Origin: Pocillopora damicornis
Lineage: Eukaryota
Reading direction: 5' to 3'
Assembly (NCBI RefSeq): GCF_003704095.1
Contig: NW_020844976.1
Span: forward strand, 1 to 64,000
Length of the DNA stretch: 64,000 nt
The notes under the pieces were generated by a model. It was not told the DNA's origin. It worked only from the letters and a program-made list of their open reading frames with translations, and did no database searches. Each line of letters opens with the position of its first letter. Position 1 is the first letter of the stretch. Below, piece after piece: positions 12,904 through 43,900 of this stretch. The position numbers were made by a program, and so were the translations under genes.

Positions 12904-15900
12904 TCATCTGTTGCTCTGCCTTCCAGTTTGGGATACAAGGCTTCGAGAGGATACAGGCTTGGTTGCTGATTTCATCTTACTAGGGCCAGTCTTCCTGGAA
13001 GCACTCCCTGTGCTCTGCTGTGTAGTGCCTGGCCCTGTCAACCTCTTAGGTTGTGGTGATCGCTGCACTCTAGACTGTTCCTTTTCTGCCTTCAGCTGTA
13101 AAAGCAGGAATGTTTACTTGTCAAGTCTTCCTACTTATTGTAACTTGTAAATGTGAACAAAACTCAAAAGAGATTTACATTAAATTTCACTCACTCTGGC
13201 TTGGTATCGCTTCTCAAAATAGGCCATGTCCTCTTCCTCAGTGGTTCTACATGCCACCTGTCCTGCACCAGCACCCATTCCATCCTCTAATGACAGCCCA
13301 GCCAGACCAGCTTGTGCTCTGAGGAAAGGGTGGTCATTAGGTCCTGGGAAAAACAACAAAATTGAAAAACTGTAGACATCTTGCGCAGTATGGAAAAACT
13401 CCTGTTATACATATTTAAAAAAAAGAACACCAGTTAAAGCAGAGCTCTTGTGCTTGAATTTAATGTCTTTTTCTGAGGTTTTTTGGGAACATGTTCTTAA
13501 TCTAGGAAGGCAGCAAACCCTGGCAATTTTTTTTTTTTTTTTTTGCATACCTACTGGCTGCTCCAACATATGCAAGGGTGGTGGGCCAATTCCACTGTCA
13601 TCCAAGCGCATGTAGCCATCCATCAGTGAACTGAACCCTGTGATTCCACCCATGGCAGCATAAGGCACATCATGGCCTGTTGGGTGGCCACGAGATATGC
13701 GTTCTTCTTTTGTTTCAACAATTGTCTTGTGGGGAAAAATTTCAATAGAGAAAAAAAGACAGCTTGCTCTATGCATAGTTCATTAAAGTCAAATGGTTAC
13801 TGTGAGTACTGGACTTGAAACCTGGTGGAACCACATGCAAGTCCTCTTCCCTGCGATCTAACCCTCTGAACCTATAGAGTGACTGACATCTAATTTCTCC
13901 TTAGAATATCACCCCACATATCACACATTAAGGTCATGAGAACACAGGAAATAATCACGAACTTAAGAAGCTCGTGACTGTTATATCAATTCTCCTTGTC
14001 AGTGCATTATTGTATAGAGAACAGTATGAAGAATACGTATACTGATGCTAGGTGTAAAAGGTTAAGTAGGAATACTCTAGATGAGGGTTTTTTGTTTTGT
14101 TTTTTGTTGGTTTTGTTGTTGTTGTTGTTGTTGGTTTTTTTTCAAGACAAACTCAGTGGTTGTGCCCTAAGAACAGCCCACTGTCTGGTCTACCTTCTGC
14201 AAGTTGAGACTCTTAACCAATACATTTAAATTTATTTTGAAAATTCATTTTATTCTTCAGTAATTGTGTCAGCCCCATGAAAAAAATTAATTTTATGCCA
14301 AAAGTAAGATTGTGGTATGAGAGGAGAAGAATCCCAGTCTTCCAGAGAGAGTATGTGAGAGCCGATTTTTTAAAATCTAAATCTAACAATGAGATAAAGT
14401 TTGGACAGTTTTACTGCATTTATTTATGAGTTTAAAATATGAGCTGTTCCTTATTTGATTAACAAAAATTTGCAGGAGCCAAAGCAAAATTGTCTACAGA
14501 AATTCTAGCAAATTTTAATGATGTCTCATTTCCTCTTAAGACCTCTGAAAGCGGGGCAGGAGGAAGGGAGGGGTGGGAGAAGGTTTGCTTACTCATCTAG
14601 GACCCTAAGTTAGAAACAATGGCACATTTCACCAACCTTGTGAGCATAAGTTGGTTCTCCACAGCCACAAGTGTAAGAACTTCTGAATTTTTTACATGCA
14701 CATCCTTTTGAACACTTGTATGGTACCACCTCGGAATGATCATCAGCAAAGTGTTTACACTGACATCTGATTGGCTGGGTGCCGTTCTTTGGTACATAGT
14801 GGTAACTCTTACATTTACAGCCACTAACACGGCAAGGGACTGGGATCGGTCTGATTTGCGGTAGTGTCTCATAATCAGTTTTGTGTTGTTTGTACCTATG
14901 TTGGAAAAAAAGCATTAAAAGTTCTTTGTAAGTTTGATTTCTTGTATTTTGGAATAAAATGTTACCAAATTATTTATTTTGCTTTTTTTCTATTTCTCTA
15001 TGTGACCCTACATGTGACTGCTGATAGATGGCTCCAGGAAATGGTTTGCTCTTATGTAATACTGTCATACTGTAATCTCCTGCAAAAACATTCTGCTTAC
15101 GAGTAGAAATGTCCATGCTCATTCATGCAAATTGTCAGATCACTTCTTTAAGCTGCCAAAGAAATACCCCCCAAAAAAAAAAAATAATTAAAAGCCAAGA
15201 TTTCCATATCATCCATACTTCATTATACATACAGTTGTTTGATTAAAGAAAACTGTGGTATAAACTAGTTTACCAATGCAGCTGAAGTTTACGAAATAAT
15301 GAAAAAAAAATAGTAATCGATTAATAGGACAATCGTCTCGCTTACCCCAAAATATCGTGATTTGCCAGCGTCTCGCAGATCACTCATTAGTATCGATTTT
15401 CTCGTTGCTGACAATCAACGATACTTTGCTCAAAGTCATCTAATAATTGTCAGTAATTCCATTTTTGCATTTCTCACCTGTGATTGCAGAAACACATTGT
15501 TTCAGGGCCGACCATCTTGCAGTCCATACCGTTTGGTGCTGTCCAACTTACATACAGCCTGTTCTTCATTCTCTGTGGCAGAACTTTTTTCTTGTACTCT
15601 TCATATTCTTCAGGAGTAAAGAGTTTTCCTCCGTCGTCATCCCCAACAATTCTGAGAAAAAAAAATAACAACAGTCTTTTCGAAATTATGCAAATGTAGC
15701 ACAAGTGTGTCTCCAGCTAACTGCGCACACCCTGCAATTCTGTTGCAGCATTCATTGAAATGCAAAATCACAGCTGTTAGGTTTATATAGGTTTAGAAGA
15801 CCTGAACCATTGTAAATGACTCATTTCACACGAAAATGCTGCTACTGCATGCCAGCCAATAACCAAGCTCGCTTCGATTTAAATTGCTATTTTAGATCGC

Positions 15901-19200: not shown

Positions 19201-21772
19201 AGTGCTGACAAGAATAATTTGTTTTATAATCATGACCTTCTTTAGTTGATGATCATTTCTTTTATTCTCCTCACCTTAATGTTTGGCTCAGGGGTGATAT
19301 TGTGAGAAGAAATTGGATGCTAGTCACTCATCAGAGTCGAAGGGTTAACTGCTCACACAAAATCAGATTTCAATCAATTTCAATGGTGAAATTTGTTGCA
19401 TGTAAATTCTACATTGATTGATAGAATCTCACACTAATTGTTATTTGCATCACATGAAGTTGGAGATCAGTACAAAATTGTATTCTTCATGTTCATTAGA
19501 AACCCAGTGAACGATGGCGAGCAGCTTCACGGATAACTCCTTTACCCAGTGCAGTAATGAGTGACTTGGAAAATAGAGATATTTCTGAGAGTGATTATGA
19601 ATTGCTGTTGCAACTTGACAGGTAGGACAACAAAATTATTTGGATCAGTTTCGTACGAGTATCAAAAGTGATTAAAAATTTAATTTAATTTTAGAACTAT
19701 CCTCATTACCTGTTTGGTCCTTGCATTCACAGGCAGGTTACTGATCAGGATGGCATCCCTGCAAATGTGATCCACAGTCTACCAACACAAGTGTTGCAAG
19801 ATGGACACAGGCTGTTGGGTGACAGCAGCAACTGTGGTGTCTGCTTACAAGGATTTCAAGTCCACCAGCGCATCAGAACTCTTCCTTGTCACCATCCTTT
19901 TCACATCACTTGTATCGACAACTGGCTTTCAAACCATTCACAGTGCCCTGTGGATGGCTCTTATGTTGGATCTGTTATTACCACGGCACCCAGGCCACCA
20001 AACAGACAAATGGTGTCAGGAGTGGGGCAATTTAGGTCTGGACCAAAAGGCAGTCATGCATTAGGAGGGGCTGGGAAAAGACCAAGCCAGAGATTAAAAG
20101 GACTTAATGATAGTAGCAACTCAGCAGCAAGTTTACCAAGTAGTTTTACTCTCAGCGGATCTCAATTGATGGTAGTACAAAATGATAAGTCACGGTAAGA
20201 GTGGAAAAAATTGTCAGACCTTGGAGTAAAGTTCCTATAGAGATTTGAATATTGCCCCAAAGTTACTTGCATTTCTTTTTTGCACATAAACGCATCAACT
20301 GAATTTAACTTATTTCACCAAAGTCAAGATTGATTACTTCACCCACAACCTATGGCTGGTTTCTTTAAAGTTTCTTAAGTTTTGAGATTTCTTTAGATTA
20401 TGGCCGTTCAAACTTTGGTGTCTATCAAAAGACCAAATTCTATGCATGAATATAGTACTTGTTACACTTTCCTATGAATATGGCCGGCAAACCTGATGTT
20501 AAGTGATTATAACTCCAGTGACTTTAGTACAAGTCGTATTCCAATAGTTGACCCCTAACCCTTTATTTCCTATGAGTGACCGAGACATAATTTCTCCTTG
20601 CAATATCAATACAACATCAAGAAGACAAGTGATGAGAATACAAGCAATTATCAAGTAGGAAATTATTAGTTGATACGATACCAAATTCTCCAATCTAACG
20701 TGGGGAGAATTGTGAGGGAGACCGTGAGGAGAATTACTAATGAGATCGTTTAAGGTTCAGTGATATATTTGGCTTTACAATGGTGCTACAACTGTTATCC
20801 ATTTTCATACAGGTCCGATGGAGACATTCAGATTCCCAGTCATGACCGTGTGTCATCCGTAGAGCCTCCGCTAATGGATCAGCCTCACATTATTCCCCAC
20901 GTGGGTCTTTTTCGAGTATCTTCAGCGGGACGGGACAAGACGCGATCTCAACACAGAACTTCTCCTGAATCCTCCGCTGGAATAAAATCGTTCACGCGGT
21001 ACAACTTAAATTTTAATCCTGTGAATGCTTCTAAACCACCCATGCCGCCTCAAAGTTTGAACAATAGTAGAAGTTCGAGCAGTGAAACAAGGAGGCCGAG
21101 GGCAAAACTGGACAGAACTCAACGAAGCAGTGTAAGTTGGTACTTGCAGTTGTAGTGTAATAGAGCGCATTTCGATTATATATGTTGTAAAAAAATCCAG
21201 CATGATCAACCGAACCAATGCCAAATCAGAGAAAAATACAAAGAGCTAATGATAGTTAAAAGCCAAAAACGGGCAAACAGTCTAAAGCGCGGAAAAACGC
21301 GGGTGACCAAGTCGTGAGTGTTGTAGTTCTTTCATCTGATTGTTTGGGAAGTTGGGGCGAGTTTTCTAGACCAATCACACAGCGAAGAAGCAAACGCAAG
21401 ACAATCCGTCTCGTACTTACAGAATAAGCCCCCTCTATCTATAGAGACATTTGGAGGCCAGATATCTCAAAGTGAAAGCATAAGCGCTTTTCGTGAATGG
21501 CGATTTCGTGTTAGGTATCTTACTTATTCCGTATCATTTCTTTGCAGTCGGTTGGAGAACTTAGTTTGTTCGCATCAGGCACCGCTGTGTCACTTGGATC
21601 GCAGGCTCCGCCATTAAACACAGACAAGAAACTTAAAGGACAGCTTATGAAAGGAAAGCTAACAACCAAGAATTCTCGGCAGTCTCTATCGGACCCAGGC
21701 CTAGCCGTGACGTTGGAGCCTATTGTTGGCTCTGGAATATCAGTTTACCTCCCTCCTGTTGATATAGATTGA
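16271..21772 (+). CDS. ZSWIM2: E3 ubiquitin ligase ZSWIM2 (MEX): SWIM, RING, ZZ, RING-H2 and a disordered tail
   Basis: MARRIPWRR..IYLLRETGPTGFLLKED..FK | VFLGDQHSCTC..ELCIHILW | VLLKKFRVP (SWIM); CPICQDEL..YCKYGCGNSIHVKCMKIW..KCPLC (RING); CKRC..GKCYRCVVCADYHLCHSCF (ZZ); CGVCLQGF..LPCHHPFHITCIDNWL..CPVDG (RING-H2). The last exon ends at TGA 21772, with AATAAA at 21870. Confidence 0.93.
17480..17785 (+). mobile_element. Degenerate tRNA-derived SINE with a conserved central domain (MetaSINE/CORE-like)
   Basis: B-box-like ggtctgggttaaaacccc, then ttcttgggtgagaaactttactctctcagtgcctct..ctccacccagg..ataaatgg, and a tail ggataagctctggccagatgggcc. This layout is typical of metazoan SINEs (recall, not searched). 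Confidence 0.6.
19153..19348. mobile_element. MITE family A copy (opposite orientation) abutting a ZSWIM2 splice donor
   Basis: taacatcagtatgcgtactctccatactgttc..gaaattggatgctagtcactc..agggttaa is the reverse complement of 49739-49950. Confidence 0.85.
20556..20758. mobile_element. MITE family A, divergent subfamily copy
   Basis: taaccctttatt..gagtgac..aatttctcctt.caatatc..aaattctcc..gagaatt. Similar copies at 56562-56764, 58956-59134 and a fragment at about 51010-51075. Confidence 0.7.
21195..21405 (-). mobile_element. Repeat family B copy
   Basis: aaagcgcggaaaaacgcgggtgaccaagtcgtga..tctgattg..gcgagttttctagaccaatcac, as at 4580-4835. Confidence 0.75.
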
Positions 21773-23474: not shown

Positions 23475-25515
23475 TGAAAAACACTGTTTTGCATTCGATT
23501 TTGTGTCAAGGTCGCGAAGGTGTGTCGCGGATGTGTCGCCTGGATTCAAAAATTTTGCCTCGTGTTGATTAACTTCAAAGAGTAGCGCCTTACTAGTATC
23601 GGTAAGTAGACTGTAGTCATTCTTTACTCGTGATATTGTCTTTGAGACGCTTGTGGTTTTGGCAAAAAATGCTACATAACGTCATAAAAATTCCCCAATA
23701 TTTGAAAACGCGAAGCTCTATGGCACATGGATTCGTTGAAATTGCGTAACGGCAGGATTTTACACGGGAGCCTTCTCTTGACTTTCTTTCCTTAATATTT
23801 GGAGCAAAATTTCACCTGTAACGTTCTATCACAAGGCAAGCGCTGTTATTGAAGCAAAATCGTGTAAAACTTGGAGGACTTGAGTAGTTTAGGAATGTTC
23901 ACTGATTTAAACTGTTGACTTCAAAGAGGGATTTTGAACAATCAGTCTCTCTCTAAAATCATTCCTCTAAATCTGTCAACGAATTGTGTACGTTGCTAAG
24001 ATACTGTTTTGGTCCTTCAATTACCAATCTCTATTAATGATATTAGCGCTTTCGTATTTGGCTTAAAAACTTTAAAAAACGTTACTTTGCTTTCTTAAAT
24101 GCCGCTGTGTAATCGTCGTCGGGTATGTGCAACTGTTTTAACTTAGAATCAGACTTATTCAATAAGATATTAATATAATAACTTGTTTATTTTTAAGAAT
24201 GTCGTCTAAAATTGTCTGTTTATTTTAGTTTAAACAAGCTATCGTTTCAATATTGGCTTTCAATTTTTTTTTGTCTATATTTCTATATATAATATTTTGG
24301 GCAATATTATGTAAGAAAAAAAATAGTAAATGTAATCTTCTTTAGTTCTCTTCAGCGTACTGTTTAGGAGAACTACCCCTAAAAGAAGTTTGACATTTTT
24401 ATAAAAATCTAGGGCAATATTGACTCAGTAATGGAGGAGAGGTTTTTGGTGAACGAAAGTTACATTCGTGAGGTTTTCGGTGACTTCAAACAGATATCGA
24501 GACTGCTCAAGCTTTTCTGAAGAGAAGAGTTGATTCAGAACAATGGGATACGTAACAAAATATGACATTTTCAAGTGAATGACTACCTTTGGGCCAAGGG
24601 CAGCCACAGAGGGAACATCATAGGTCACTACTTTCTGATGTCAGCGCGAAATTTTAAGAGACAGAGCCATTTCGAGGCATTTCGCCAGTCTTTTTCTCCG
24701 GCAGACGTTGAAAACAAGTGGCCTTTTACGAAGAAAAATTTTTCGTGTATCTAAGCTTGTTTCATATTGGGTGAAATATAGTTAAGACAATTCATTGAAT
24801 CACAGACAGACGTATAAAATAAATTTTGAGCAATTTAGATTACCATGTAAAATGTAGACGGCCTAATTTGGTAGGCAACGGTGCTGGCGCCGTTTTAATG
24901 TAGTAAACCTTTATATTCTCAACAAAAATTTAAAAAAACACACACACAAAATAAATTTGGAAATACTTCAGTGAGCTGTTACGCTCGAACCAGATAGAAA
25001 TATCGCTGCTAATAAGTTTTGTTAGAGGTAAAGCCTTTTAGCTTTCAGACATGTACATTTTTACCAAAAACTACCAAATCAAGAAACACGTCTAGATGAG
25101 CAATATGTCATGGTACAATTACCCTTTTTACAGAAAACAAGATCAGGAACTTTTTTTTGACATGCAATTCTTGGAAAATTATCAAACTGATGTCTTCGAG
25201 GCAAAAACCTTTATCATATAAATATCTGACTTGCACGATTCCAATTCTGCGCATTCATTCTGCATGTTAAGAAAGAGAATGGGTTTCTGCCATATTTATT
25301 TACTTATTTATCTATTTTGTCATAGCTCAGTCTCCCTTGGTGATTTAAATCAAGTTTTTTTTTAGTCACACTGGACAGTCGAGGAGAACTGGCATCAAAA
25401 ACAACCAAATCTGGCTCTTCTTTTCCATTTTAAAGTCTTCCTTGTTTTGAAAAACACAAAGCATAAAAAAACAAGAGGGTTGACCAATAGACCAGTAGCC
25501 CTCGGAATCATGTCG

Positions 25516-25538: not shown

Positions 25539-27328
25539 GTATTATTCTACTCAGTATCAAAGACCATAGAAAGAAGGTCGAGCGAAAGCGAATATATCCC
25601 ACAAGATTCATCGAAATCTAGCTCCTAGGCATTACCTCGTATTTCAATCTTGTTGAAGAACTGCTTGTTACGACGGTAAATTTACCCAATCATCTTAATT
25701 TGCTCAAAAAACGGAAAAACCTTCCACTGCACGACATCTCGTGCCGCTGACACACGATTTCCACAAATAAGAATTTTGTAATGACCTTTTCAGAAAATAA
25801 TCACAAATCTATAAGAAAAGTTGACAGCTTGCTGTTTTCCCTTATTTCATTCAACGCCTTAAAGCTGCTACATTAGTATTCCAAATTTTCTCAGTGGAAT
25901 ATTCATTCAGCAGTTTTAAAACACGGAAATGGTGCATTTTTTTTTTATTCAACAACAACTTCCGCCGGAAAAAATTTACTTGAGTGATACCACCTGCTGT
26001 GAAACAGCTTTCGCTTTTCGTTCCATTAGCGGAAGTGAGGCTCTTCAAAATAACACATCATATGTGCTTTACACCGAAGGTATAAGTCGGCAAAAACTGT
26101 TTCAAAGAGGTTGGTCTTGCATGTTAACCACACGGAATTTAATGCATTTTTTTCACATTGAACAAAGTGACCTAAGACCATGCGGTTGACGAAGGCCCTT
26201 AAATACAAATTGGTTTTTTTTGATTTGCTTTTAATGACGTATTAAAGCTTTTACATCACTAATCGAGCTTTTTTTGTTTGAAAATTTAATAACCGTAACT
26301 TAATCTTACGTAGACATCGTAATTACATACCGAATCATCACGAACAACAAGAATTTTGCCTAAAATGATTGTGGTTTAATTAATAAGTTTAGATTTCCAA
26401 GAACTGTTTACCCTAAATGGTGTTTTAAGTTAAGTTTTATGCCCCATCACATTAATTATATCCAAAGAAGTCTTGTATCTGATGCTGATATCAATACATG
26501 GTATACCTAAGTACGATGAAACTACCATTCTGATCAGTTTTAAGCTCTACAATCACTCAAGAAAATCGAGTTGTAAATTTCTTCACAATTTTGCTCTGGG
26601 TTAAACAGAATTGAATAATTTACGTGCTAATTTTAGATCAAATGTAGCCACTAAATCGGATTATATTTTTATCACCACTGAAGAGGTTTCGTGTAGTTAA
26701 CAGGTATTAAGTGTTTGAGGTAAGTACGTGGGCAAATCACACGAACACGCAAAACCTGCCCAGTGCACACGAAGAGAAAGGCTCCGTTCACACAATGTTT
26801 GTCACTCAAGTGTGCATAATAATTGCAAATTCATTCATTTGCGGATCACAGTGCATGAAAATGGGTTACTTTGCGGGCTTATGACTTAGCATGTTTCGTG
26901 AGGAAAATTAAAACAACCATTTCGGTAACAACGGATGGAAACTTTTTAGTATTGTGCCTGCTAGAAGCATGTAGGAACTGCATGTCATTGGTCAAATTCT
27001 CCACTTTAACTCTCCACAAGTTTGTAGAAAAGTTTGAAGCTTTGTTAAATTCTTTACAGTGATCGTGAATCCGACAGGTAAATATTCGCTTTGTGCGCCG
27101 TGAACTCTTGGGCCAAGGGCAACTCCTGCAAGCTAATTGCACTCCCAATGTCTTAGAAATTTAATTTTGTATTGTTCGTCGTACACGGCTGTTTATAGGC
27201 CTACCGGTTCTGCACCGGTGATTTTTGGAGTGAATTTATTACGGTAATAAGGCTCTGAGCTTCAACGCAAATTCTGAATTAATTTCAGACACTCGCTGAG
27301 TGAAGTGTACGCTAACACTACATATTCT

Positions 27329-30300
27329 ATGAGGATGGCCGCTACTCTCAGTTACTGCGAGCTGATGTTATTTCTTGTGGCGATGACGTGCTCTCGACTT
27401 CCAACTTCAAGGTAAATTCTTAGTTTTGTCGTTGTGAAACTTCATGATGGTGTATTATTTACTGCGTAGTTCTAGGAAACTTGCGCTTTTAAGCTACTAT
27501 AATTATAGTGTACGGAACATAGGAAGAACAAAAAAGTTCTGTTCGACGCAAAACTAACTGGCGTCGCTGTTTTTACCATGTTAAACCGCCATATTTCTTT
27601 CTTTTAGCTTAGGCCAAGAGACGAACTCCACGGGAAATGGGAAAGACATTTCACGCTGCAAGAGCGTAACATGTTGTGTAAGTTGTAAAAACATTTGTTA
27701 GTACTCTCTCATTCAAACCTAGCGGGACTGCTTAAAATTCAGGCGCCGATTATTTTCCAAAAGTCGTGCGCACAAGTCGAACCGCAGTAGAAGAAGAAAC
27801 TTCGTAGAGTTGGTTCTCGGTTCTTTGTGAATATGCCATGATACGTTTGCGCTCTCTTTTTAGTTGGCTGTGAGACAATCCACTTTTACTCAATAGCATG
27901 CATCTAATATAGAATAACACAAACCCTTGACCTTCTACTTATTTTCGTCCAAAACCGGATCACTGATGTTCAAAGGAAAATTAATGTTCTTGCCGCGGTC
28001 TTCATTTTGGTCAGCGCTGTATTAAAAACCTGCTGCAAAGTTGGTTGGCCGTTTTACCGAGCAAACACTGTTGTTCAAAATTGAAATATAGGAAAGTTTT
28101 GCTAGTAGTTTCAAACAGCTGAAGGAATTGTATTTGCGGTGTTTTTTTCTAATACAATATCGCCTTGGTTAGTGACGAACGAAGAAATGTCGAAATGTTC
28201 TTTATTCTGAACAGTCTCACTGAAAGTAAATATACACTCCAGTTTGTGAAATTTCGAGCTGCCTTACTGTCAAGCAATCTTTATCCAGGGAAATACTTCA
28301 GTTGCTTTTAGTTGAGTGAGTGTACAATGTTTGCGAGAGCGGTCTTTTTGATAATAACTTGTCAGCTGGGTAGAAACAATAAGAACGTGTTAATTTGTTC
28401 AGTCAGTAAATGAGCTTTGTGATTCTTGTTTACATGTGAACAGCTCCAAAACACACCAAGATGCGAGAGCGTTTAAATGTTTGTTCAGGTTGGAAATTTG
28501 TTGCAGCGTAAGGGCCGTGAAATTAGGTTCGCAGTGTGTTGAGGAGTCTCCGTTTAACAATATGCCTCTTAGCACCTTATCAACGAAATGGGATTTATCA
28601 ATGGTACGAAATTATCTGATTAGTAAGAAATAGCTTGTGCGTGAGCGAAGAATCTTCGTTTCCTATGTTAACATCTCGAAGGAGTAAATCTACAATTAAA
28701 TCTTATCAGTAAAAGCGAACGAACCATAAAGTTTATTGTAAGTGGAGACGCGGTTTCCTTTGCCTTTGATAAGAACCTTACGCAACCCATCTGCTATCTC
28801 GCTAAACATTTCCGCCCTCTCTCGTGAATAGAAGTAACGTGGCTTGAACGAAGCCGAAAGGAAACACATTGTTTCCAGCGGATCAGAAAAGTGCCACCGC
28901 AGTGGATGTTACACCTCGTACTAAACGCACATTCGGCACCAAATACACCCACACATTGCAAAGCCGTGACAATAGCTCTAGAGTGATTTATTATAAGTCA
29001 AAGAACTAGTCCAATTCATATAAATCCTTGTTTTCTTCCAGTGCATACAATTGCGGTTAGACATTGTGTTCTAAGTCTGCTTGCTCGAACTGTAGTTTTT
29101 CATTCGTCTTAAAATGGCGTCGAACGTTTCCCAAGGGAAGCTCTCAATAAAATACCAGAGAGTTGAGACTGCAACAAACTAAGGCAATTGTTTCATTTTA
29201 GATATCGTAAAAGGTGAAGGTTATATCGACAGCAAAAGAGAGTTGATTTCTTTCTTTTTTGTTTATAAATGAATGCAAATAAACACGAGAACTCAGTGTG
29301 GGTTAAATTCAACAGAAATTGGGCGCATATGTGTCATTAGAAACACTTGTTTGAGTTTTGCTGTCGGTTGTGTCGACATGAGCGTCGATTTTTCCTTTAA
29401 CATGTTCATGTTTGGACGTTTAAGAAGCCAAATGAAAAGAAGTTATCGAAGAAATACGTGACAATCAATAGAAAGCCGTATTCTTAGCGCAAATCTTTTA
29501 TGACGTAGCCATCCGTAAAGGTTTAAAAAATCTAAGCAAGGAGGATGGGTCGGGGGCTGGTGATGGGAAGATCAGGGGGAGGAGACTGGGAAGGAACGCT
29601 GACGAAATTTTGTCCCTGCTGACAAACTGTTTAACTGTTGTAATCAAGAATTATTTTTAGCTCATGCAGTGAGAAAATAATCCAACTTCAGAAAATTTGA
29701 AAATTCTGCGTCATTTGAGACCCCACTTGGCAGTGCTTACAACTTAAAACACCAAACAACTTGTTTCCAGAATTCTGGAGCAAGGTTTGTCTAGTTTTAA
29801 AACTATTTACCTTCGTAAGACATTCAAAGTATTTTAGAGCATTAAGCCTAAGGTTAACATCAAATAGAGCGAAAAATACGCGTATAGAACTACCAAAAAA
29901 ATCCCACCGTAAAATTTCAACTGAAATGAAGACTATAGAGCTTTGAAAGTTGGCATGTAGAAGCCAAACTTCTTCGAGTTCGAATTTTTGTCTTGATGAT
30001 AATAACGAAATGTAAGTTTTCATTCACGGTAAAACTCATTAAGACATTTTAACTCACCTGCCAGATTTCCACGTCCGTTAAAACTTTTCAAGCCAAGATC
30101 TTTTCTCAGTGCGATCCCATTTGTTTTTGTTTCCAGTATCCCAGGTAATGATGACGCAACAATTTGCATGCACGCTCGCGTAATAACTTAAAAAGAATTG
30201 TCGCGCGCAGATTGTTGTCTAGATTATTAATTCCACTATTTCATCTTAAAAATAACTGTAATACCAGAACTGTCCTTGTGAAAATGTCCTGTTCTTTGAG

Positions 30301-33300
30301 GGTACCCCTATTTTTTAGCAAAACGGCATGTGTCGTCCTACGCAAAGAATAAGATAGTTTACCTTTTTTAGCCGTTTTTGATTGAAAACCGGTATAGATA
30401 TAGAACATGGAGGTCTCAAATGAAACATGCTTCCTGAGATAACTAAAGGAGCATATGCCAAATAAATGATAACATTTGGAAAAATTTGGGTTGAGTCTTT
30501 CGTGCACCAATTCGCTACTTCTGCACTTAAGTGACAATTGATTTTGCCGCTTAAAGATCAAGTTCAACGGATCGAAAAATGGGTGTAGACGGCAACTGCC
30601 TAGGGCTCGTTGGTAGAAAGTTCCGAAAACTTAATGGGCCCAAAGAAGTGTTTTCATCTAATTGTTAGGAATGACGGCACAGGTCCTAGTTCAAAATCAA
30701 GTCCATTCTTATTTCATATTTCATGATGTCGTAACTGCTTGAATTTCATAACTGTTCCCATCTTGATCATGAATGAAAAAACGATCCCGATTTTGAAAAG
30801 GGGTCCCGGATTTGAAGAACCGAGCGGTACTTCCTCACTAAAAATTGTGAACAGTCTCCCCCCCTTATCCCCCAACTCAGAAAAAGACCAAGAATCAATT
30901 TGTTACTTAGGTAAGAAGCTGATTATGACAATCATTTCTATGTTTTAACTATCCCCATTCTAAACCAAATCCTTTTTTATTCTTTTTTACAGGGAATTCC
31001 GGGAACTCCTGGTAGGAACGGTAAGTTCTAATGAAGGAATTTCACTTAATTGAGGGAATTTCTTGATTATAGACTGAAAGTGAATTCCCAAAGTGAGATT
31101 TTCCACTCCGAACCAAAATTTGAAATTCTCTGAAGGGGTGATCACTCCTCTTAGAGCAATTTTCAATTTAGTGTCGAAGGTAATCCGGGATCTCATTGGT
31201 TTTACTTTTGCTCTGTGATTCGTGGTCAAGAAAACTCGTGCCACGCTCTCAACTAATTAGATTCAAAGCTGACACCAATCACGATTTGGTCACGTGCGTT
31301 TTACTGCGCTTTAGACGGTTTGCTTTTGCCGTTGGAATAAGTTTGGTTTTGGCCTTAAGACACTAAATCGAAAAGCGCTCTAATTTGAGTAGTACATCTA
31401 AGGACTTAAACCCAATTCAGGAACTTTTGGTGAACGTGATAACCCCATGCTAACATTCAACAAACATTGGACCTTTTTTTAGGGTCAAGCGTGCCTCAAC
31501 AGATTAACAAAAACATTTTTCGGATTTGCTTCCTTCAGGTTTATCACCTACTGATCGATTTTTCCTCCTCACACAATATTCCGTGTCCTTTTAACTGATT
31601 ATCTCGTCTCTATATCAGATATATATTGCTCATGAAATGTTTCAATTTTCTCTTCTACTTGGATTAAGTACCTAGCAATACAAACAGCTCATCTTAATAT
31701 GGCTAATTTTATTTCAAAGTTGATTAAACCAAGACATCTTTTAATACCCCCCACCTTCTCAGCACCACAGTTTAAAAAAGTTACCCCTTACATGGATTTT
31801 AAACTTGTTGACTAGACAGCTGTGAACGTTTATACGATTTTCTGGAAAAGGAAGGCAAACATGATTTTTTACTTGGTTCCGCCATTTTTTCCCGTTTTGT
31901 TTTGTTATTTATCTGAGTTTCACATGATTCGTAAAAATGCAAAAAGTCTATAGGCTTACGTACAAAGCTATTTCATGCTTTCATAGGTCTTTGCTATTCG
32001 GTGGAAAATTAGCGGGAAGCTACGAAACAATTTACCCGCCAGTAGGATACAACCCTTAGGCAAAATGTTTTTTCTGGTTTAGTGTCTCTGCTCTGTGTGA
32101 TTATCACACCCTTAGGCCTTGTTTACTTTCTGTAAGTGTCATTGTGTGCAGCATTTTAAAAATAATAATAATTTCATTTTATAAGGATAGGTTCTGTTTG
32201 CACAAGGGCAATCGTTGCTCATGCCATGGCTTGAGGCAAAACTCATCAAAATCTGCGGTTTTTTTAAACAATATATCATCCTGTCATGTTCCTTAGTATT
32301 TATGCAGTGGAACTGTTCTAATTACTATTTGCAATGAGCTTTAAGTGCATCCATCAATTTAAGAATGGTCAAATCACTTAGTGTTCAGTCAAAATAAGGA
32401 GCAGATTGATATAGAGATCAAATTTGCGCGAAATAAATGATTTAATCTTTCCTTATCTTCCAATCTTTGCATAATTAACTCTCAAATTTGAAAAACACAT
32501 ATTCTCACGTACTCGAATGGAATAGATCCATTGCTCAGTTAAACTTAGAAGTAAAGACCTCACGCCAAAAACCGCGCAGACCAATATCGGCTATTTAGTT
32601 TAGAATAACTAAAGGAAGCAAGTTGATATCGTCAGGTTTGGCCGTGTCTATTAGCTCCTCCTATTTCGAAACTCAATCAGTAATGCAACGAAGTTTGCAC
32701 CTAAGTTAAAAGTTAAATAAGCCGACATCCGGCGTGTGATACTTTAAACTAACATACATGATACAGGTGGCGGTAGCTGGATATGGAACTGAAACTCCTC
32801 CAACATAAAATCTGCAAAATCCGAGTTTGACGCAATAAAATTTGATGCTGTTTCTTAAAGAAACTTAAGTTGTCTCGCAATAACATGTGAAGCAAACCAT
32901 ACGGCGAAAAAGGCATCGCGAAACAACCTTGAGCAACCTTTCCGTTTTGTTCTGGGTTTATGTCGCTTGCTGAACGATCAGCGTCGTTCCCTACCCATTC
33001 CCTTTAGTTGCATTTCTTAAAGTTTCTATAGTTAGTTTCATTATAGGGCACTTAAACATGCTCAAACAAGGCTGGGGGGGGGGGAGGATTTCTTTAACAG
33101 GCATGTGATCGTTATCTCAAGTGTATTTAAAAGTCAACTCACCGTATTTCGGTTTGGCAAAAAATAATCGAGCCATTTTTTACAGGGAAGCAGCCAGGTT
33201 GGAAACCAAAACTTAAATGGCGATGCACAACTCTTAGCGTATTTGAAGTCAGTTATCGAATGGTTATGTTACTCTTTCGAATCTAAAAACGAAGTAACTA

Positions 33301-34407
33301 GTAAAATAGGTAATTTTAGTGTTAACAACTGAATTGAAAACGTAAATTGGCCACCGTAAAGGGTAAAAAAGCTAAAATGTTCGATATACTTTGAGATTCT
33401 GGGGCACACTTTTCCTTCGACTTGCGTTGTGATAAATGTTGCAATTTCCTTCATTTCAGGAATTCCCGGACACCCTGGGCCCCAAGGGCTAAACGGACCT
33501 CCCGGTAGGAACGGGCTAAACGGAATCCCAGGGAGCAAAGGCGAAAAGGGAGAATCAGGATTAATGGGCCGGCGGGGGAGAAAAGGAGCACCTGGAGAAC
33601 CGGGTATCAATGGTACCGACGGCATCCCCGGTTGGAGGGGTAAGGAAGGACCAAGAGGAATGAGAGGCCCGATGGGTCCCCAAGGGCCTACAGGCGAGAA
33701 GGGGGATTCTGGAAGCCCTGGTGAACCGGGGCCCCCTGGGTCTGAACGAATCCTCAAGGTATGCACATGTGAAAGAAATGTCCCAACACAAGTCTTTTAC
33801 GTAAACTCAGGCCACTGGATCTCAGAGAAGGCCATGACAGGGTTTCAGGATGTCAGTTCAGCATACGGGGAATTTCAAGTCAAAGTTGTGGTACCTGTCA
33901 CCTATGTTCTCCATATTGGTGGTAAGTTTATGTCTTTGAATTACGACTCATTCAGAACTGAGATGTTGTACAAGTTTTAAAGTTTGCCAGGAACCATTTA
34001 TGCTTCTGAATAGAGATTAAAAAGTCTAAAAGACGAGTACAAGGGATTTTCGCTCCGATGCTCTACCACTGAGCCACTAAGAGCTTGAATGTCGAGCTAA
34101 TTATCTTTCCGACCTTTTTCCTCTTCCACTTACAGGAGACTGGGTGAATGACGATTCTGTAACCTTGTTCTACCGTCTCCGTTGCGCTCACCGCCGACGA
34201 ATGGCGTACCTTCCAAACGAAACTGGCCACAAAATCTACAAGTTCAAAGAGGAGAATCGATTGGAGTCGGAAACTTTTACACATGTCACCACAGCGCTCA
34301 GCCATCACGGAAAATGGAGATGTCTGCTGCAGATCAGCAAAGGGATGGATCGGGCATTCTATCGCTGGGACTCACAATACGGTGAAATCAGTTTGACCAT
34401 GTGGTAG
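27329..34407 (+). CDS. Secreted short-chain collagen-like protein: signal peptide, Cys-Cys N-terminal segment, about 35 uninterrupted Gly-X-Y triplets and a roughly 150-aa C-terminal domain of unrecognised family
   Basis: Phase-compatible exons: 27329-27411 (MRMAATLSYCELMLFLVAMTCSRLPTS), 27608-27677 (SLGQETNSTGNGKDISRCKSVTCC), 30993-31020 (GIPGTPGRNG), 33460-33921 (32 GXY plus RILKVCTCERNVPTQVFY..HIG), 34136-34407 (GDWVNDDSV..YGEISLTMW*). All junctions are GT-AG. Confidence 0.82.
31151..31382 (+). mobile_element. Repeat family B, near-complete copy with terminal inverted repeats
   Basis: Begins ttagagcaattttcaatttagtgtc and ends gacactaaatcgaaaagcgctctaa (inverted complement). Confidence 0.85.
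33295..33385 (-). mobile_element. Repeat family C fragment
   Basis: gtgttaacaactgaattgaaaacgtaaattggccaccgtaaa is the reverse complement of about 61776-61817. Another fragment lies at about 31715-31790. Confidence 0.7.
34045..34080 (-). mobile_element. tRNA-like (A-box) SINE head fragment in a collagen intron
   Basis: The minus strand reads agtggctcagtggtagagcatcggagcg, with no T-arm or acceptor stem. Confidence 0.5.
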
Positions 34408-35926: not shown

Positions 35927-35979
35927 NNNNNNNNNNNNNNNNNNNNNNNNNNNNNNNNNNNNNNNNNNNNNNNNNNNNN
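35927..35979. other. Assembly gap (53 N)
   Basis: Run of N. Confidence 0.98.
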
Positions 35980-37937: not shown

Positions 37938-40900
37938 TTATGACGGTTTTACCATCTCCTCTATAGAAAGAAAAAATTCAATAATCAAGGAAAACTCTGG
38001 CTAACGATTAGGTATATTTATTCAATGAACGTTTCACGCAATTTCGTGAGGCATGCCATAACATCAAGCGTAACGCAAGATTATGACTTTCATTTAAGTC
38101 TATCAGAAGTAACACTCACCGTCGTAAGCTTTTAGCAGTGCCTCCAGGACAAAAATAAATTGTCCCTGAAGAAAAACAAGGGACAGGACTAAGAATTAGT
38201 AAACAACGAATATTCAGAACGACCCGCAATCAAAATGCTGTTGTTACAGTCCAAACACTGTTACCTGCAGCACTTGCACAAACCTGACCAATCAGGTTAC
38301 TAGAAACTAGTTAAAAGTTACATCGAAATTCGACGCTATGTATGCTTGCTTTGGTCCTAGGCACAGATTGGCTCATCTGAATTTATTCGGTAAAATTATT
38401 CGTTTGCTATGATGCGATTGGTTAATTTTGGTTCAGTGGCCCTGTAATGATGAAAACTTATCGATACTGTAACGCAATCTCAACTTACCGGAGTTTGTAT
38501 GAGTGAACATCTTTGATCCCTCATCTTTCGAACGATTTCTAATGGATAAATGGGTTCTGCACTTTCAATCATGTTGAATGCTGACTCCATAAAGATAAGA
38601 ACACCTGTTCGACCAACACCCGCACTTAAAAGGGAGAAGAAAAAAAAGGTACTTCACTCACACAAACCATGAAGTGATGTGACACTTAGCCTAAATGTCA
38701 CGCCAACTTGGTTAACGTGAAGATGCTTAGATTCAGCTGTGAGATTACACTCGCTAACACAATCTCTCAAATTTTTGATGGAGAAATAGAATCTCTAAGA
38801 TTTCAGCAGAAGGTGAAATGATGTTCAGATTTGAGTGCATAATTATGTTTTTTTTCAGTCTTTTGCCGCAGAAATCGTAAGCTTCAAAATCAAACTATAT
38901 CAAAGCGATTCCTTTTGAGAGAAATACTCAGTTTCTTCAGCTTTATTCTAACATTTTGTGTAAGTTGTCTGCTTACCTGCAATGTAACACAGTCGGAGTG
39001 TTTGTTCCTTCCCGGTAATGACGAACAATGTGAATAAACTCCAGAAAATCTGTTGAATCGTCCGGAACATCTACAAACGAACACAAAAACAGTATAAATT
39101 AAAGTTAGAAATAATTATAAACCTTTGAAGACGTTTCTTTTGGATACAACATCATTAATGATAAGCTACATAAATTCAAGGTATACAAATAAACACTCAA
39201 ACTAAGAACTTTGAGGGGAAGCTTCCTCAAAACAAATTTAAAAAAGCCTTGGAAATTGATTAACAAACAGTGTCACAAATTTACCGAAAATTTTAATTTG
39301 TCAACAAAAGGAAATTTCGTTTCCAAAATAGATAAATGAGTAGACGTTATAGTTGATGGAAAATAAATCTGACTTCCAACTCAAAATTACATCTCATCGG
39401 TCCTGATAATAGCGGTAAACCAGTGATTTTTTTTAACAACTTTTGGCTACAAGTAGCGTAGAATCAGATAGATTTTGGAAAACTAAGGGAAAAGTGTCGA
39501 AATATTTGACCAGGTGGCCTACTGCTAAATATTCCTTTCCAAACAAAACCATTTTAAGCCAGGTTTCAATGCTTTGGCTATTGTTTGAGTAAAGAAACAG
39601 AACAAAGCGACATAAAACCAGTAACATTTTCCAACGATGTTAAAAATTTCTTTCTTTGAAAAAGGGACTGGAGGATTTCCACACGCAACACAAGGAGAAC
39701 TTCTAATTGGTTGAGATTTCCCGCGCAATTTCATCACTGTTTCATCGCCACTGGAGCGCATTTTGTAATGTAAGCTGGTTTCACCTTCTTAAAACATTTC
39801 ATATTTTAAAGCGAAATATAACTTAGGTTTGAAAAAATTCAGGTCAAAACCAGCTTTAAGGCTACTACCAATGGGCACAGTTAAAGTTTTCATAGAAAAG
39901 GTCGGGCAGGCGCCTCCGCCGAGCAAAGATTTTCATCAACTCGTCGTGAATGAAGAAGAAGTAATATGGCGAACATGGAGAATTGCGATCCGGAGAGATC
40001 AAAGAGGGTTACCGCCAAACCAAAAGAAAGTTCCTTGGGAAGATTTTGACGACGATGCACTTCTACAAGGTGATATAAGCCGTGTATTTGGTGAGGAAAC
40101 ACTTCGGCACGTTCATGCTATAGTCTGCGGAGACTGGCTAATTCGCTTACCGCCTCGCGTAATTGTTAATATTGCTTCGTATCTTGACCTCATCGACATA
40201 GTTCATTTAGGAGCTGTTTGCAAGTTTACAAGAAAGATATGTGCAAGCGACCAGCTCTGGGAAAAGATCTATCTGGCTTACTGCGACAGTGTGACAGATG
40301 AAGTCAAAACCTTGGCCAAGCAACATGGTTGGCGGAAAGTTTTCTTCACAAACAAGCTAGAGCTTCGCGTAAAATTACGACGAATACAGCGGATCAAATG
40401 AACAGTAAACTGACCTAAAACAATGGCGATGTCTCAGTATACTCGAGAAGAGGCCTTTCAAAGGTCTACAGGAGGTCTCGCCAATCGTTTCAAATTTATT
40501 TTTGAAATCAAATATTCTACTAACAGTACATTTCACTTGAATAAGAGAATTTTAAAATTTTCCGATGTAGAGATTTCCTCAAGCTGGATTGTGATTACTG
40601 ACACACAAATGGCACTAGGTTGTTTACCTTTCAAGAATATCTTGGATGTGTAATCTCTTTAAATGACAGATGTTGGATTAATTTCAGATAAGGCTCAGAA
40701 CCTTATTTTACTAATTGCAAACCGATATTATATTTTTCGAAACTGAATGTTATCTGTGTTGACCTTTCGAAAACCGTAGAAATTTAAGACTCAAAGAACT
40801 TGTGGCATTTCGTACTAATATCTTCTGAAGCTATGAATAACAATCTCTTACAAATAAAAACCAGTTTATCTTTGCTATGAAATCAGAAATGTCTTCGTCA

Positions 40901-43900
40901 AAGACAGTCAATCCAAATGGGTTTTAATTCTACAAAAGTCTTCAAAAGATTAAGCAAAAGTTTTCGTTAGGGAGGGGTGAGGTGGTCGTATATTAGTGTT
41001 ACCTACCATGGTCCGGCCAGGCAATATATTGTAGCTGAACAACAACACGGCTTCGAAGACTCTATAAATAGAAAGAACAGGTGTCAATTTTCAGAGAAAA
41101 AACCGAAAAACTTATTTTGAGCATCATGTTGATGATTTTCCCAAAACACAGTGAAAAACTTATTTTAGGCCACAAAATGTCAACCAAACACACTTCGTAA
41201 GACGCGTTCGGAGAAGTAGGTTTTTTTTCCGCCGCAATTCGAGTGCGTCCGAAAAAAGCCAAAGGCCCCGCTCGTCATGAAGACGGTACCAATTACCGAT
41301 GCCGTATTTTTCGAAGCCAACTTACCTTCGTTTCGGTGACATACATTTCTCTGTAAATATACGACGGTGAGAAGTCGCGGATTTTTGTGCAGACTATTTC
41401 TAGATCTCCAAAGGTAAGAGTTTCCTCTCCTTCCGGCCAATATTGGTGACACTTCACCTGGGAAAATACAAAAAGAAGTGAATTCAACATCGCTGTTATA
41501 AATTCAAAATGGGAAAAAAAATTCAAAATGGGGAAAATACAAAAAGAATTTAATTCAACATTCAACAGTCCCAGCCCCAAAAGGTAGCCAGTTTGTAGGC
41601 CAGAAGGCCTAAGTCACCTCTTAAAGCGAGTACTGAGACGTGATCCCTGCCACAGAAAACCCTACATTCTAACCTCTCATAAGCGACTCCAGACACCCAT
41701 TATGAGGATATTTTTCGAGCTCCAAGGGAGGGGAAGGGAGGTGGTCTCACTGGAGGGTTTACCGCATTAAGGTTCCCGAAGAATCAGCCACCTATCCAGG
41801 TAAACTGGTATACATCCGGAATCTATCGCATTCATGAAACTCGTAATGATCTACAAAATCTACCGAAGATAAGATTTTTCTCTTCGATTTTATACAGTCT
41901 GATGCAGTCGATAATTAGAGAGCCTATAACCCTACCCTTCCTCTCTCGACTGTGGTAGTCAGCATAATAATAAGAGATGCCTCTTGCTCCCACACCATCT
42001 GTAATTCATAGAACAGATATCACTGTTAAAAAGCGACAACATAATCATCAAGCTAATTTAGTGACAATGTATTTACACATTACCTGCCAGAAATCCCCGC
42101 ACGTCTTCTCCAGTGGACCTTGAGCAGCTATGTATCTGTTAAGTAATCCTCTCGCAGGAATTTCCATCTGAAAGGTAATCATAGAAAAGGCTGTTTAGCC
42201 AACCAACAGAGCTGCGACAACTTGATTTCCTCATTGGCTGTGGTCACGTGTTCACGTGTGACACTCACCGTGACGTAGTTAGCGTTGATATAGTCATTCT
42301 TTCCTTTGTAAAGTTTGCATCGCGTATCATCGTCTGTGCATGTAAAGAGTTCAAACACAATTTGAAACTTTTTCATTGCCAAAACACTACACAAAAAGGG
42401 GCCCATTAACAAAATTAAAAAAAGAAGAACGGTAGATAAACTCAAGTTCTCACAAGGTAAAATATCTCTGTATCTGTTGCGTGGAAGGTTTTCGGGCTTT
42501 CTCGCTTCTTCCATAGACATTCCAGGCTTTTTTCTGTACAATTCCTGCAATAAAAGACAGTTAGATATTACTCATTAGCTGTGTAGTATTCTACATGCCA
42601 AGCACTAAAACCTCGTCTAAGAAGAGTTAGGATACTTCAAGTTGCTCAGAAGCAGGGATAGACTTGGTTCAATGGAGCCGGTAAAAAAAGGCCGGTATAC
42701 CACTGCTCACCTGAAAGTACACGAGCAGATCGCCGCTTTCGAGATTCTAGGAAACAATCAATAAAATATATGTATCAGCACACAGGTGTATTACCACTTG
42801 ACAACCAAAGCATCACATTTTCTATTAATAAAAAGTGACATAACTGTAGAAAAACAGAGGTGCACGGTACAACATGGCCGCAGAAATTTGCAGGTAGCTA
42901 TTGCCTGCAAGCCAAGCCCTCAATATTAGCTCTTCGGCACGAACCCGACGGCTTGCCCACACGCGAGGTAGCTGTGAAGGACATAACCAGCGACAGCTTG
43001 TAGCGGCACATAATTTGTGACCAGGACGTTCACACAATTAAAAAAAAAGTCGCGACGAACGCAACATATTTTAACTCTGAACTTTCCTTTGTTCTGGTTA
43101 GCTGGAGAGTGTATCATAAGTCTTCTACCGCCCGGCTTGAAGCATATATTACCTCTCGGAGTTGATCCATAGAAACACGAAGAGCTTCGGTGTCCTTCAC
43201 CACCCCTTTTTCCTTTACTTGTTTGGCAACAACTTTTTCTTGTTCGTGTCTCTGTTCAGCCGCGGCAAACTGCTCCGGACTCACCGCATGCACGGGCGAG
43301 GGGGCAGAATTCGTGAAAACTGGAACGGAATGGAATTAATTTACCTTTAGTAAACATAAAAAGTTCACGTTACAGTCTTCATTCTTCTTGTCGTTTAAGC
43401 TACAGAAACCCAAACAAGCTATAGCAGTGATAGATACTTGATAGGCTTGACCTGTTGTGACATAATAAATACAGAGGAAAACACAAAATATTCTTACCGA
43501 ATGGTCTTATCGTCATTATCAGTAGTCGTCGGTTTGATTTGCTGATTGTTCTTATGAGATCCACAATCTAAAACCAAACCAAAATAGAAATGTAAACAGG
43601 TATTTTATTATCATTATAATTATTATTATTGTTATTTAAGTCTTCAGACATCATCTGCACGCGTTTGACCTCAGTTTATTCATCAAAATGATAAAAAAAT
43701 AGTTTGAATTGCTCGATCCTTTTGGGAGTATAGTTTTCAAGGCTTTCAAAGCATGACAGTTGTGACCCCGCCAAATTGGTTCATAAATGTTGCGTCACTC
43801 TCTCAACATAGCAGATAGAACTACCCTAAACCATCACTATTCAAGTTTTCTCGCGCTTTGAGTACGCTGCTGCAGTTACTCTGGTTTTATGAAAGACGAA

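Follow-up and report, generated by a model that had tools for sequence, protein, structure and literature searches.

A gene of the stony coral Pocillopora damicornis encodes a short collagen whose C-terminal head belongs to an unannotated domain family common to hexacorallian animals, giant viruses and bacteria. By analogy with bacterial TNF-like lectins, to which the predicted fold of the head is closest, the protein is likely (with a probability of about 0.5) a secreted, disulfide-bundled trimer in which the head would bind a conserved glycan and the stalk would bind polyanions. The architecture and the fold superfamily are already known, and a description of the head family, of its anthozoan, giant-virus and bacterial spread and of its closeness to lectins was not found in the literature searched. 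If the head binds sugar, corals would gain a conserved candidate glycan reader for the recognition of symbionts or microbes, and giant viruses of algae and protists would gain a candidate host-attachment tip.

Gene structure and transcripts

The gene lies on the forward strand of the window, that is, the whole stretch of 64,000 nucleotides analysed (positions 1 to 64,000 of contig NW_020844976.1). Its coding sequence runs through five exons, with GT..AG boundaries at all introns, and forms one open frame of 304 amino acids, in which the last intron splits the codon of G215 (Table 1). Four RNA runs, drawn from four studies, all show splice joints 1-3, and three of them also show joint 4; of four further runs, three carry all four coding joints, and in the other, X17, the last intron is left unspliced. 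The short side of joints 2 and 3 comprises 25-27 letters because exon 3 is 28 nt long, and single contigs span both flanks (X3 record 15). Two runs carry 69-72 extra letters upstream of position 27288, with unique placement at 23577-23600. A spliced gene joining the collagen and head exons, as postulated in an initial sequence-only reading of the window, is borne out by the RNA contigs, which carry all four coding joints.

The gene model is identical to P0075 (XP_027042137.1, pdam_00012648) of P. damicornis, the automatic database name of which is "C1q and TNF-related protein 9-like" (C1QTNF9-like); other database names given to the coral protein are collagen XVI-, IV-, VI- or XV-like. The head lends no support to any of these names. 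A second genome copy, sought with both head exons in a search that scores best candidates only, was not found.

Table 1. Positions in the window of the parts of the collagen gene and of the exons that flank it
Feature	Position	Strand	Basis or remark
Flanking exon	14613-14969	-	Protein-family match
Flanking exon	19695-20195	+	Protein-family match
Non-coding first exon	23530-23601	+	5' end approximate; ends at 23601, GTAAGT donor at 23602
Exon with ATG at 27329 and likely signal peptide	27289-27411 (coding 27329-27411)	+	RNA, hydropathy
Linker exon with C45 and C50-C51	27608-27677	+	Splice frame, RNA contigs
28-nt exon, first GXY triplets	30993-31020	+	Splice frame, RNA contigs
Exon 33460-33921, collagen stalk portion to residue 156	33460-33746	+	Frame, Pfam Collagen
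Exon 33460-33921, neck (CxC) and first third of head	33747-33921	+	Frame, predicted fold
Last coding exon, remainder of the predicted TNF-like head and stop codon	34136-34407	+	Frame, RNA, predicted fold
3' untranslated region	34408 to at least 35200	+	RNA contigs reach 35200
Flanking exon	39793-40398	+	Protein-family match
Flanking exon	42182-42571	-	Protein-family match
Flanking exon	62167-62529	+	Protein-family match

Protein architecture and the anthozoan family

In the spliced frame the protein begins with an N-terminal hydrophobic stretch, followed by C45, C50-C51, 35 uninterrupted GXY triplets (residues 52-156), the pair C162-x-C164 and a head of 148 amino acids ending in GEISLTMW. This is the order that had been read from the unspliced letters, with hydropathy making the signal peptide likely. 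No other GXY run of at least four triplets occurs in any frame of the 64-kb window, all six having been read; the stalk matches the Pfam Collagen profile with an E-value of 7.8e-19 and carries a basic patch (GRRGRKG), a sequon at N111 and the motif GWRGKEGP. The remaining cysteines, C231 and C277, both lie within the head, and the strand register of the predicted model suggests that they could form a disulfide. The layout is that of C1q-type proteins: signal peptide (by hydropathy), N-terminal cysteines, collagen and a C-terminal jelly roll (predicted).

Word-indexed protein searches returned 12 of 26 candidates and then 14 of 27. The named members come from the stony corals Pocillopora, Stylophora, Porites, Montipora and Acropora and from the anemones Actinia, Exaiptasia and Nematostella; no animal group beyond corals and anemones appears among the named matches, names being attached to a minority of all matches. 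Residues 170-304 are identical to those of three anemones at 100-102 of 135 positions (74-76%), and the collagen X and Y positions at 36-37 of about 70. The helix is 35-36 triplets long across the orthologues, the N-terminal pattern C-x(4-6)-CC is shared by all 11 full-length family members, and all ten orthologues carry G[RK]RG[RK][RK]G, G[WF]RGKxGP and an NGT sequon, three motifs that are absent from the divergent paralogue P0013. Judged by these comparisons, the collagen gene is single-copy and slowly evolving. In the Montipora RefSeq entries P0106 and P0108, the divergent paralogue is annotated behind a fused WD40-like protein; in Logan, members of this cluster are separate proteins of 296-303 amino acids, and the fusion is probably a chimeric gene model.

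Comparison of the head with known domain families

PF01391 is the sole Pfam match of the full-length proteins, and the check for a confident full-length match to a characterised family brought up only this collagen profile. The head, when compared with Pfam, PHROGs, NCBIfam and PDB sequences, gave chance-level matches only. A propeller match to the head (E 3e-4) was rejected as the sum of three weak repeats and as being at odds with the fold.

The C1q profile PF00386, which is able to detect a viral C1q tip above its cut-off, matched none of 12 family members at E 10, none of 9 heads at E 10 and none of 38 heads at E 0.1; its search of the P. damicornis genome gave no match, with the control silent too. 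The CTHRC1 profile PF25815 (CTHRC1_C) matched 42 places in this genome, none of them on NW_020844976.1, and the head profile aligned with 18 CTHRC1 heads of the same genome at an hhalign probability of 1.7%. The TNF profile PF00229 matched 15 places, again none on this contig, and left the family members and heads unmatched. For PF21592, the family of the lectins BC2L-C-N and PLTL, no match was obtained among 38 heads at E 0.1, and the PDB chains of these lectins gave no sequence match to the head at E 10; a PF21592 search of one bacterial genome also gave no match, with its controls silent too. The terminal domains of collectins, ficolins, spongin/collagen IV NC1 and minicollagens (C-type lectin, fibrinogen, C4 and cysteine-rich, respectively) were likewise not found. 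The sequence-only reading, in which no C1q, C-type lectin, fibrinogen, CTHRC1, NC1 or minicollagen motif was recognised in the head, agrees with these profile searches.

Predicted fold of the head

The head model computed from 38 alignment rows is all beta, with a pLDDT of 93.1 and a pTM of 0.86; an earlier model from 10 sequences had a pLDDT of 72, yet matched C1q, TNF and BC2L-C. In a structure comparison against 48,161 chains, the best chain was the fucose lectin PLTL of Photorhabdus (Z 12.0, 2.6 A, 122 residues aligned), and the N-terminal domain of Burkholderia BC2L-C (BC2L-C-N) scored Z 11.4 and ranked first with Foldseek. These nearest folds (Z 11-12 over about 120 residues) are soluble bacterial lectins without collagen, and the identity of the coral head to TNF-like lectins is 8-12%, with no PF21592 match. 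Other Z scores were 10.6-10.7 for the Pgp3 C-domain, 9.7 for Bd2734, 9.3 for EDA, 8.9 for RANKL, 8.2 for BclA and 7.9 for zebrafish C1qA; birnavirus VP2 scored 9.4 in the first comparison and 11.5 in another look. A shared fold proves no function, as VP2 equals the lectins in score and Pgp3 trails them by no more than about 1 Z. Among predicted viral structures there were 138 matches at E 0.001, with an identity of 7-16% among the best 50 of the 138. In the language-model Atlas, the coral head produced only leads under 0.9, to C1q clusters rather than lectins, and for the non-animal homologue P0037 the first match was Bc2l-C_N (0.94, 176 shared features). The model predicts a TNF-like jelly roll for the head, closer to bacterial TNF-like lectins than to C1q, so that the C1q/TNF/BclA-like jelly roll considered earlier as a possibility finds support in the predicted model, at Z 8-12 over the whole head.

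Head homologues in viruses and bacteria

A profile of 10 anthozoan heads, searched against 1.84 billion representatives at E 0.001, gave 52 matches. Five of these (P0028, P0042, P0046, P0055 and P0057) were dropped as repeat-rich proteins with summed short matches; 32 non-anthozoan-type proteins were kept, 30 of them entered alignment A4, and the head alignment comprises 38 rows. Compared with two homologue subsets, the anthozoan-head profile reached probabilities of 99.6% and 98.7% over 131-133 columns. In a check of 45 proteins, a near-full head turned up in 39 of non-anthozoan type, and all but one of these (38) stop at most 10 amino acids past it. The check for bacterial or phage relatives proposed by the sequence-only reading has yielded homologous heads at the C-termini of proteins of giant viruses and bacteria.

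On viral contigs, head-bearing fibre-like proteins were found at 11 loci from 53 candidate stretches. One locus, L037, carries the gene of an NCLDV major capsid protein as well; the fibre-like paralogues of this locus have a common N-terminus and a tip that is either the head (in two genes) or, above the Pfam cut-off, a C1q domain. The cassette at L037:1341-9533 consists of short paralogous fibre-like genes, several further tips of which have no Pfam match, and the same cassette occurs in L036, L038-L041, L047 and L048. The viral stretch L045:643-7831 holds an array of RING/TRAF-type zinc finger/coiled-coil proteins in which the C-terminal domain varies (SPRY, the coral-type head and others); these variable domains occupy the usual place of MATH, and the array is followed by a gene recognised by eye as serpin-like. 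In bacteria, a coiled-coil-like head protein is encoded in a proteobacterial MAG (L044), and a LamG protein with the head is named from a Candidatus bacterium. Repeats and analogy suggest that the viral and bacterial head proteins are fibres and trimers, and the stalk of homologue P0032 presumably resembles the MAT fibres of Bdellovibrio. A tblastn search of GenBank phages with one head homologue found nothing.

In a tree built without two fragments, the anthozoan heads cluster as a single group (100/100), the long branch of which has an ambiguous attachment; P0030, a fragment of 81 amino acids whose host organism might point to the origin of the animal branch, groups with them at 97/86 in a tree without P0065. 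No donor lineage for the animal head was identified in these trees. In a bolder scenario, which we regard as speculative and rather unlikely, an ancestor of corals and anemones would have captured the fibre-tip adhesin of a bacterium or giant virus and joined it to a collagen already present in the animal, giving an independently invented collectin and the first animal TNF-like lectin, which would read symbiont or microbe glycans in animals without collagen-bearing C1q, MBL and ficolin.

Proposed function and alternatives

All 29 non-anthozoan rows have W292, G297, G215 and R228; Y296 is found in 26 of them, R256 in 24 and E or D at position 258 in 26. Across animals, viruses and bacteria, no other polar and aromatic residues are conserved as well as those of GDW (215-217), RLE (256-258) and YxWxSxYG (290-297). 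TNF topology was used for assigning loop positions and, applied to the predicted strands, would place all three motifs on loops distal to the stalk. In BC2L-C-N, fucose is bound atop the jelly roll between protomers (PMC7024360), PLTL is described as binding it likewise between protomers (PMC12914763), and the TNF-like tips of Bdellovibrio fibres hold sugar between protomers, as reported for Bd2439 with GlcNAc (PMC10769870). Under a rough linear scaling with no residue alignment, the BC2L-C-N pocket residues Tyr48, Glu81-Arg85 and Arg111 fall near positions 219, 255-259 and 288, and by the same scaling only, the places expected for the fucose pocket (Tyr48, Thr74, Thr83, Arg85 and Arg111) come close to W217, R256-E258 and Y290-Y296. 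Inter-protomer binding in the lectins and the presumed distal position of the conserved motifs together favour a glycan-binding trimer, although the conserved residues could instead be structural.

The mechanism that we propose starts with export through the signal-like N-terminus. Three chains would form one stalk, with the trimer nucleated by the head; a homotrimer is assumed because a collagen stalk is present. The trimers would be bundled via C45/C50/C51 and C162/C164, and the stalk would be tethered to sulfated glycans or other polyanions by its conserved basic patch, which we take to resemble the heparin-binding sites of ColQ. With a glycan held in the inter-subunit grooves by GDW, RLE and YxWxSxY, the product would be a multivalent glycan-binding adaptor in the mesoglea, in mucus or at the cell surface. 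Its ligand is probably conserved, whether it is a glycan of the host's matrix or mucus or an unvarying sugar of microbes, since the gene is present in one copy and evolves slowly.

The same slow change and single copy, with 74-76% head identity to anemones, would also suit a conserved protein partner, as expected of a secreted signalling ligand of the CTRP, CTHRC1 or ectodysplasin kind, whose trimeric heads would be brought together by the collagen and act on a protein receptor. TNF ligands come next in the fold ranking (EDA 9.3, RANKL 8.9), and CTHRC1, which has the same overall plan, acts in signalling (PMC7058181); we nevertheless consider such a ligand unlikely, given that neither the Pfam TNF nor the CTHRC1 profile matches and that the same motifs are kept in viral and bacterial tips facing very different surfaces. 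A structural matrix collagen like collagens VIII and X or BclA, whose head only trimerises the chains and links a lattice, would account for the cysteine clusters at both helix ends and the fixed length of 35-36 triplets, and C1q-type NC1 heads do likewise in collagens VIII and X (PMC7058181). The polar and aromatic residues placed by prediction on the distal loops are retained in animals, viruses and bacteria alike, which argues against this, tip swapping among viral paralogues points to recognition, and a purely structural role seems quite unlikely to us. The skeletal-matrix role suggested earlier gained nothing from the analysis, as anemones, which build no skeleton, have the gene too, with a head that is about 75% identical.

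A complement-activating pattern receptor that replaces C1q and MBL in cnidarians is, in our estimation, improbable. Its appeal lies in the report that cnidarians with C3 and MASP lack C1q, MBL and ficolin of the collagen-bearing kind (PMC11312191), to which the empty PF00386 genome search (albeit with a silent control) and a conserved G-K-x-G-P with Lys in the X position can be added. The MASP motif is, however, Hyp-Gly-Lys-aliphatic-Gly-Pro, and the sole xGKxGP of the stalk is RGKEGP, found in 8 of 10 orthologues, with Glu at a place where it is barred for mammalian MASP binding (PMC2856262); the reading is weakened because this only candidate motif has a glutamate, the rule being one of mammalian MBL that may differ for cnidarian MASP. 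The gene is also unexpanded compared with CTHRC1 at its 42 matched places. Slow evolution, single copy and the failed motif argue against a complement-type immune receptor, so that the parallel to defence collagens drawn by the sequence-only reading holds for the architecture, and a complement-type defence role has so far gained no support.

Relation to known proteins and to the literature

A counterpart in overall plan within the same genome is CTHRC1, which like the coral protein has a signal peptide, a short collagen and a C1q-like head of 130-150 amino acids, and which differs in having about two dozen near-full-length heads in the genome as opposed to a single-copy gene. CTHRC1 has been defined as a C1q-like collagen family, the head of which also occurs in bacteria and protists (PMC7058181), and this spread is, by analogy, a precedent for the animal, bacterial and viral pattern of the head described here. 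C1q, C1QTNF (CTRP) proteins, adiponectin and collagens VIII and X share the architecture, the N-terminal cysteines and the jelly-roll superfamily with the coral protein, whereas the head has no PF00386 match and a Z score of 7.9 with C1qA as against 12.0 with PLTL. BclA and EDA likewise place a TNF-like head after the collagen (Z 8.2 for BclA and 9.3 for EDA), while the coral head lacks any Pfam match; EDA is made as a type II membrane precursor, whereas the coral protein has a short signal-like stretch. The Bdellovibrio MAT tips Bd2734 and Bd2439 combine a TNF-like tip with a trimeric stalk, which would parallel the presumed stalk trimer of the coral protein, and differ in that the solved tips have no sequence match to the coral head.

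In the literature, six accessions of the coral protein drew no mention in full texts, a scope mostly outside subscription journals, and the database name combined with coral terms was not found among the papers listed, which is a weak test; coral supplements may use such automatic names. In the consulted part of PMC13581030, C1q and TNF are not mentioned. Ten Nematostella "collagen-like" proteins are said, in the portion consulted, to be without additional domain motifs (PMC12549020); the Nematostella orthologue may be among them, the matrisome tables carrying no sequences.

Surroundings of the gene

Short high-copy repeats in the last two introns (33315-33376 and about 34044-34082) draw hundreds of unrelated contigs, and the N runs at 3367-3648 and 35927-35979 both lie outside the collagen gene. 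The flanking exons match FAM221, a RING finger, an F-box, a tyrosine phosphatase (just under the cut-off) and CCDC93, and on these matches the gene neighbourhood is an ordinary animal one.
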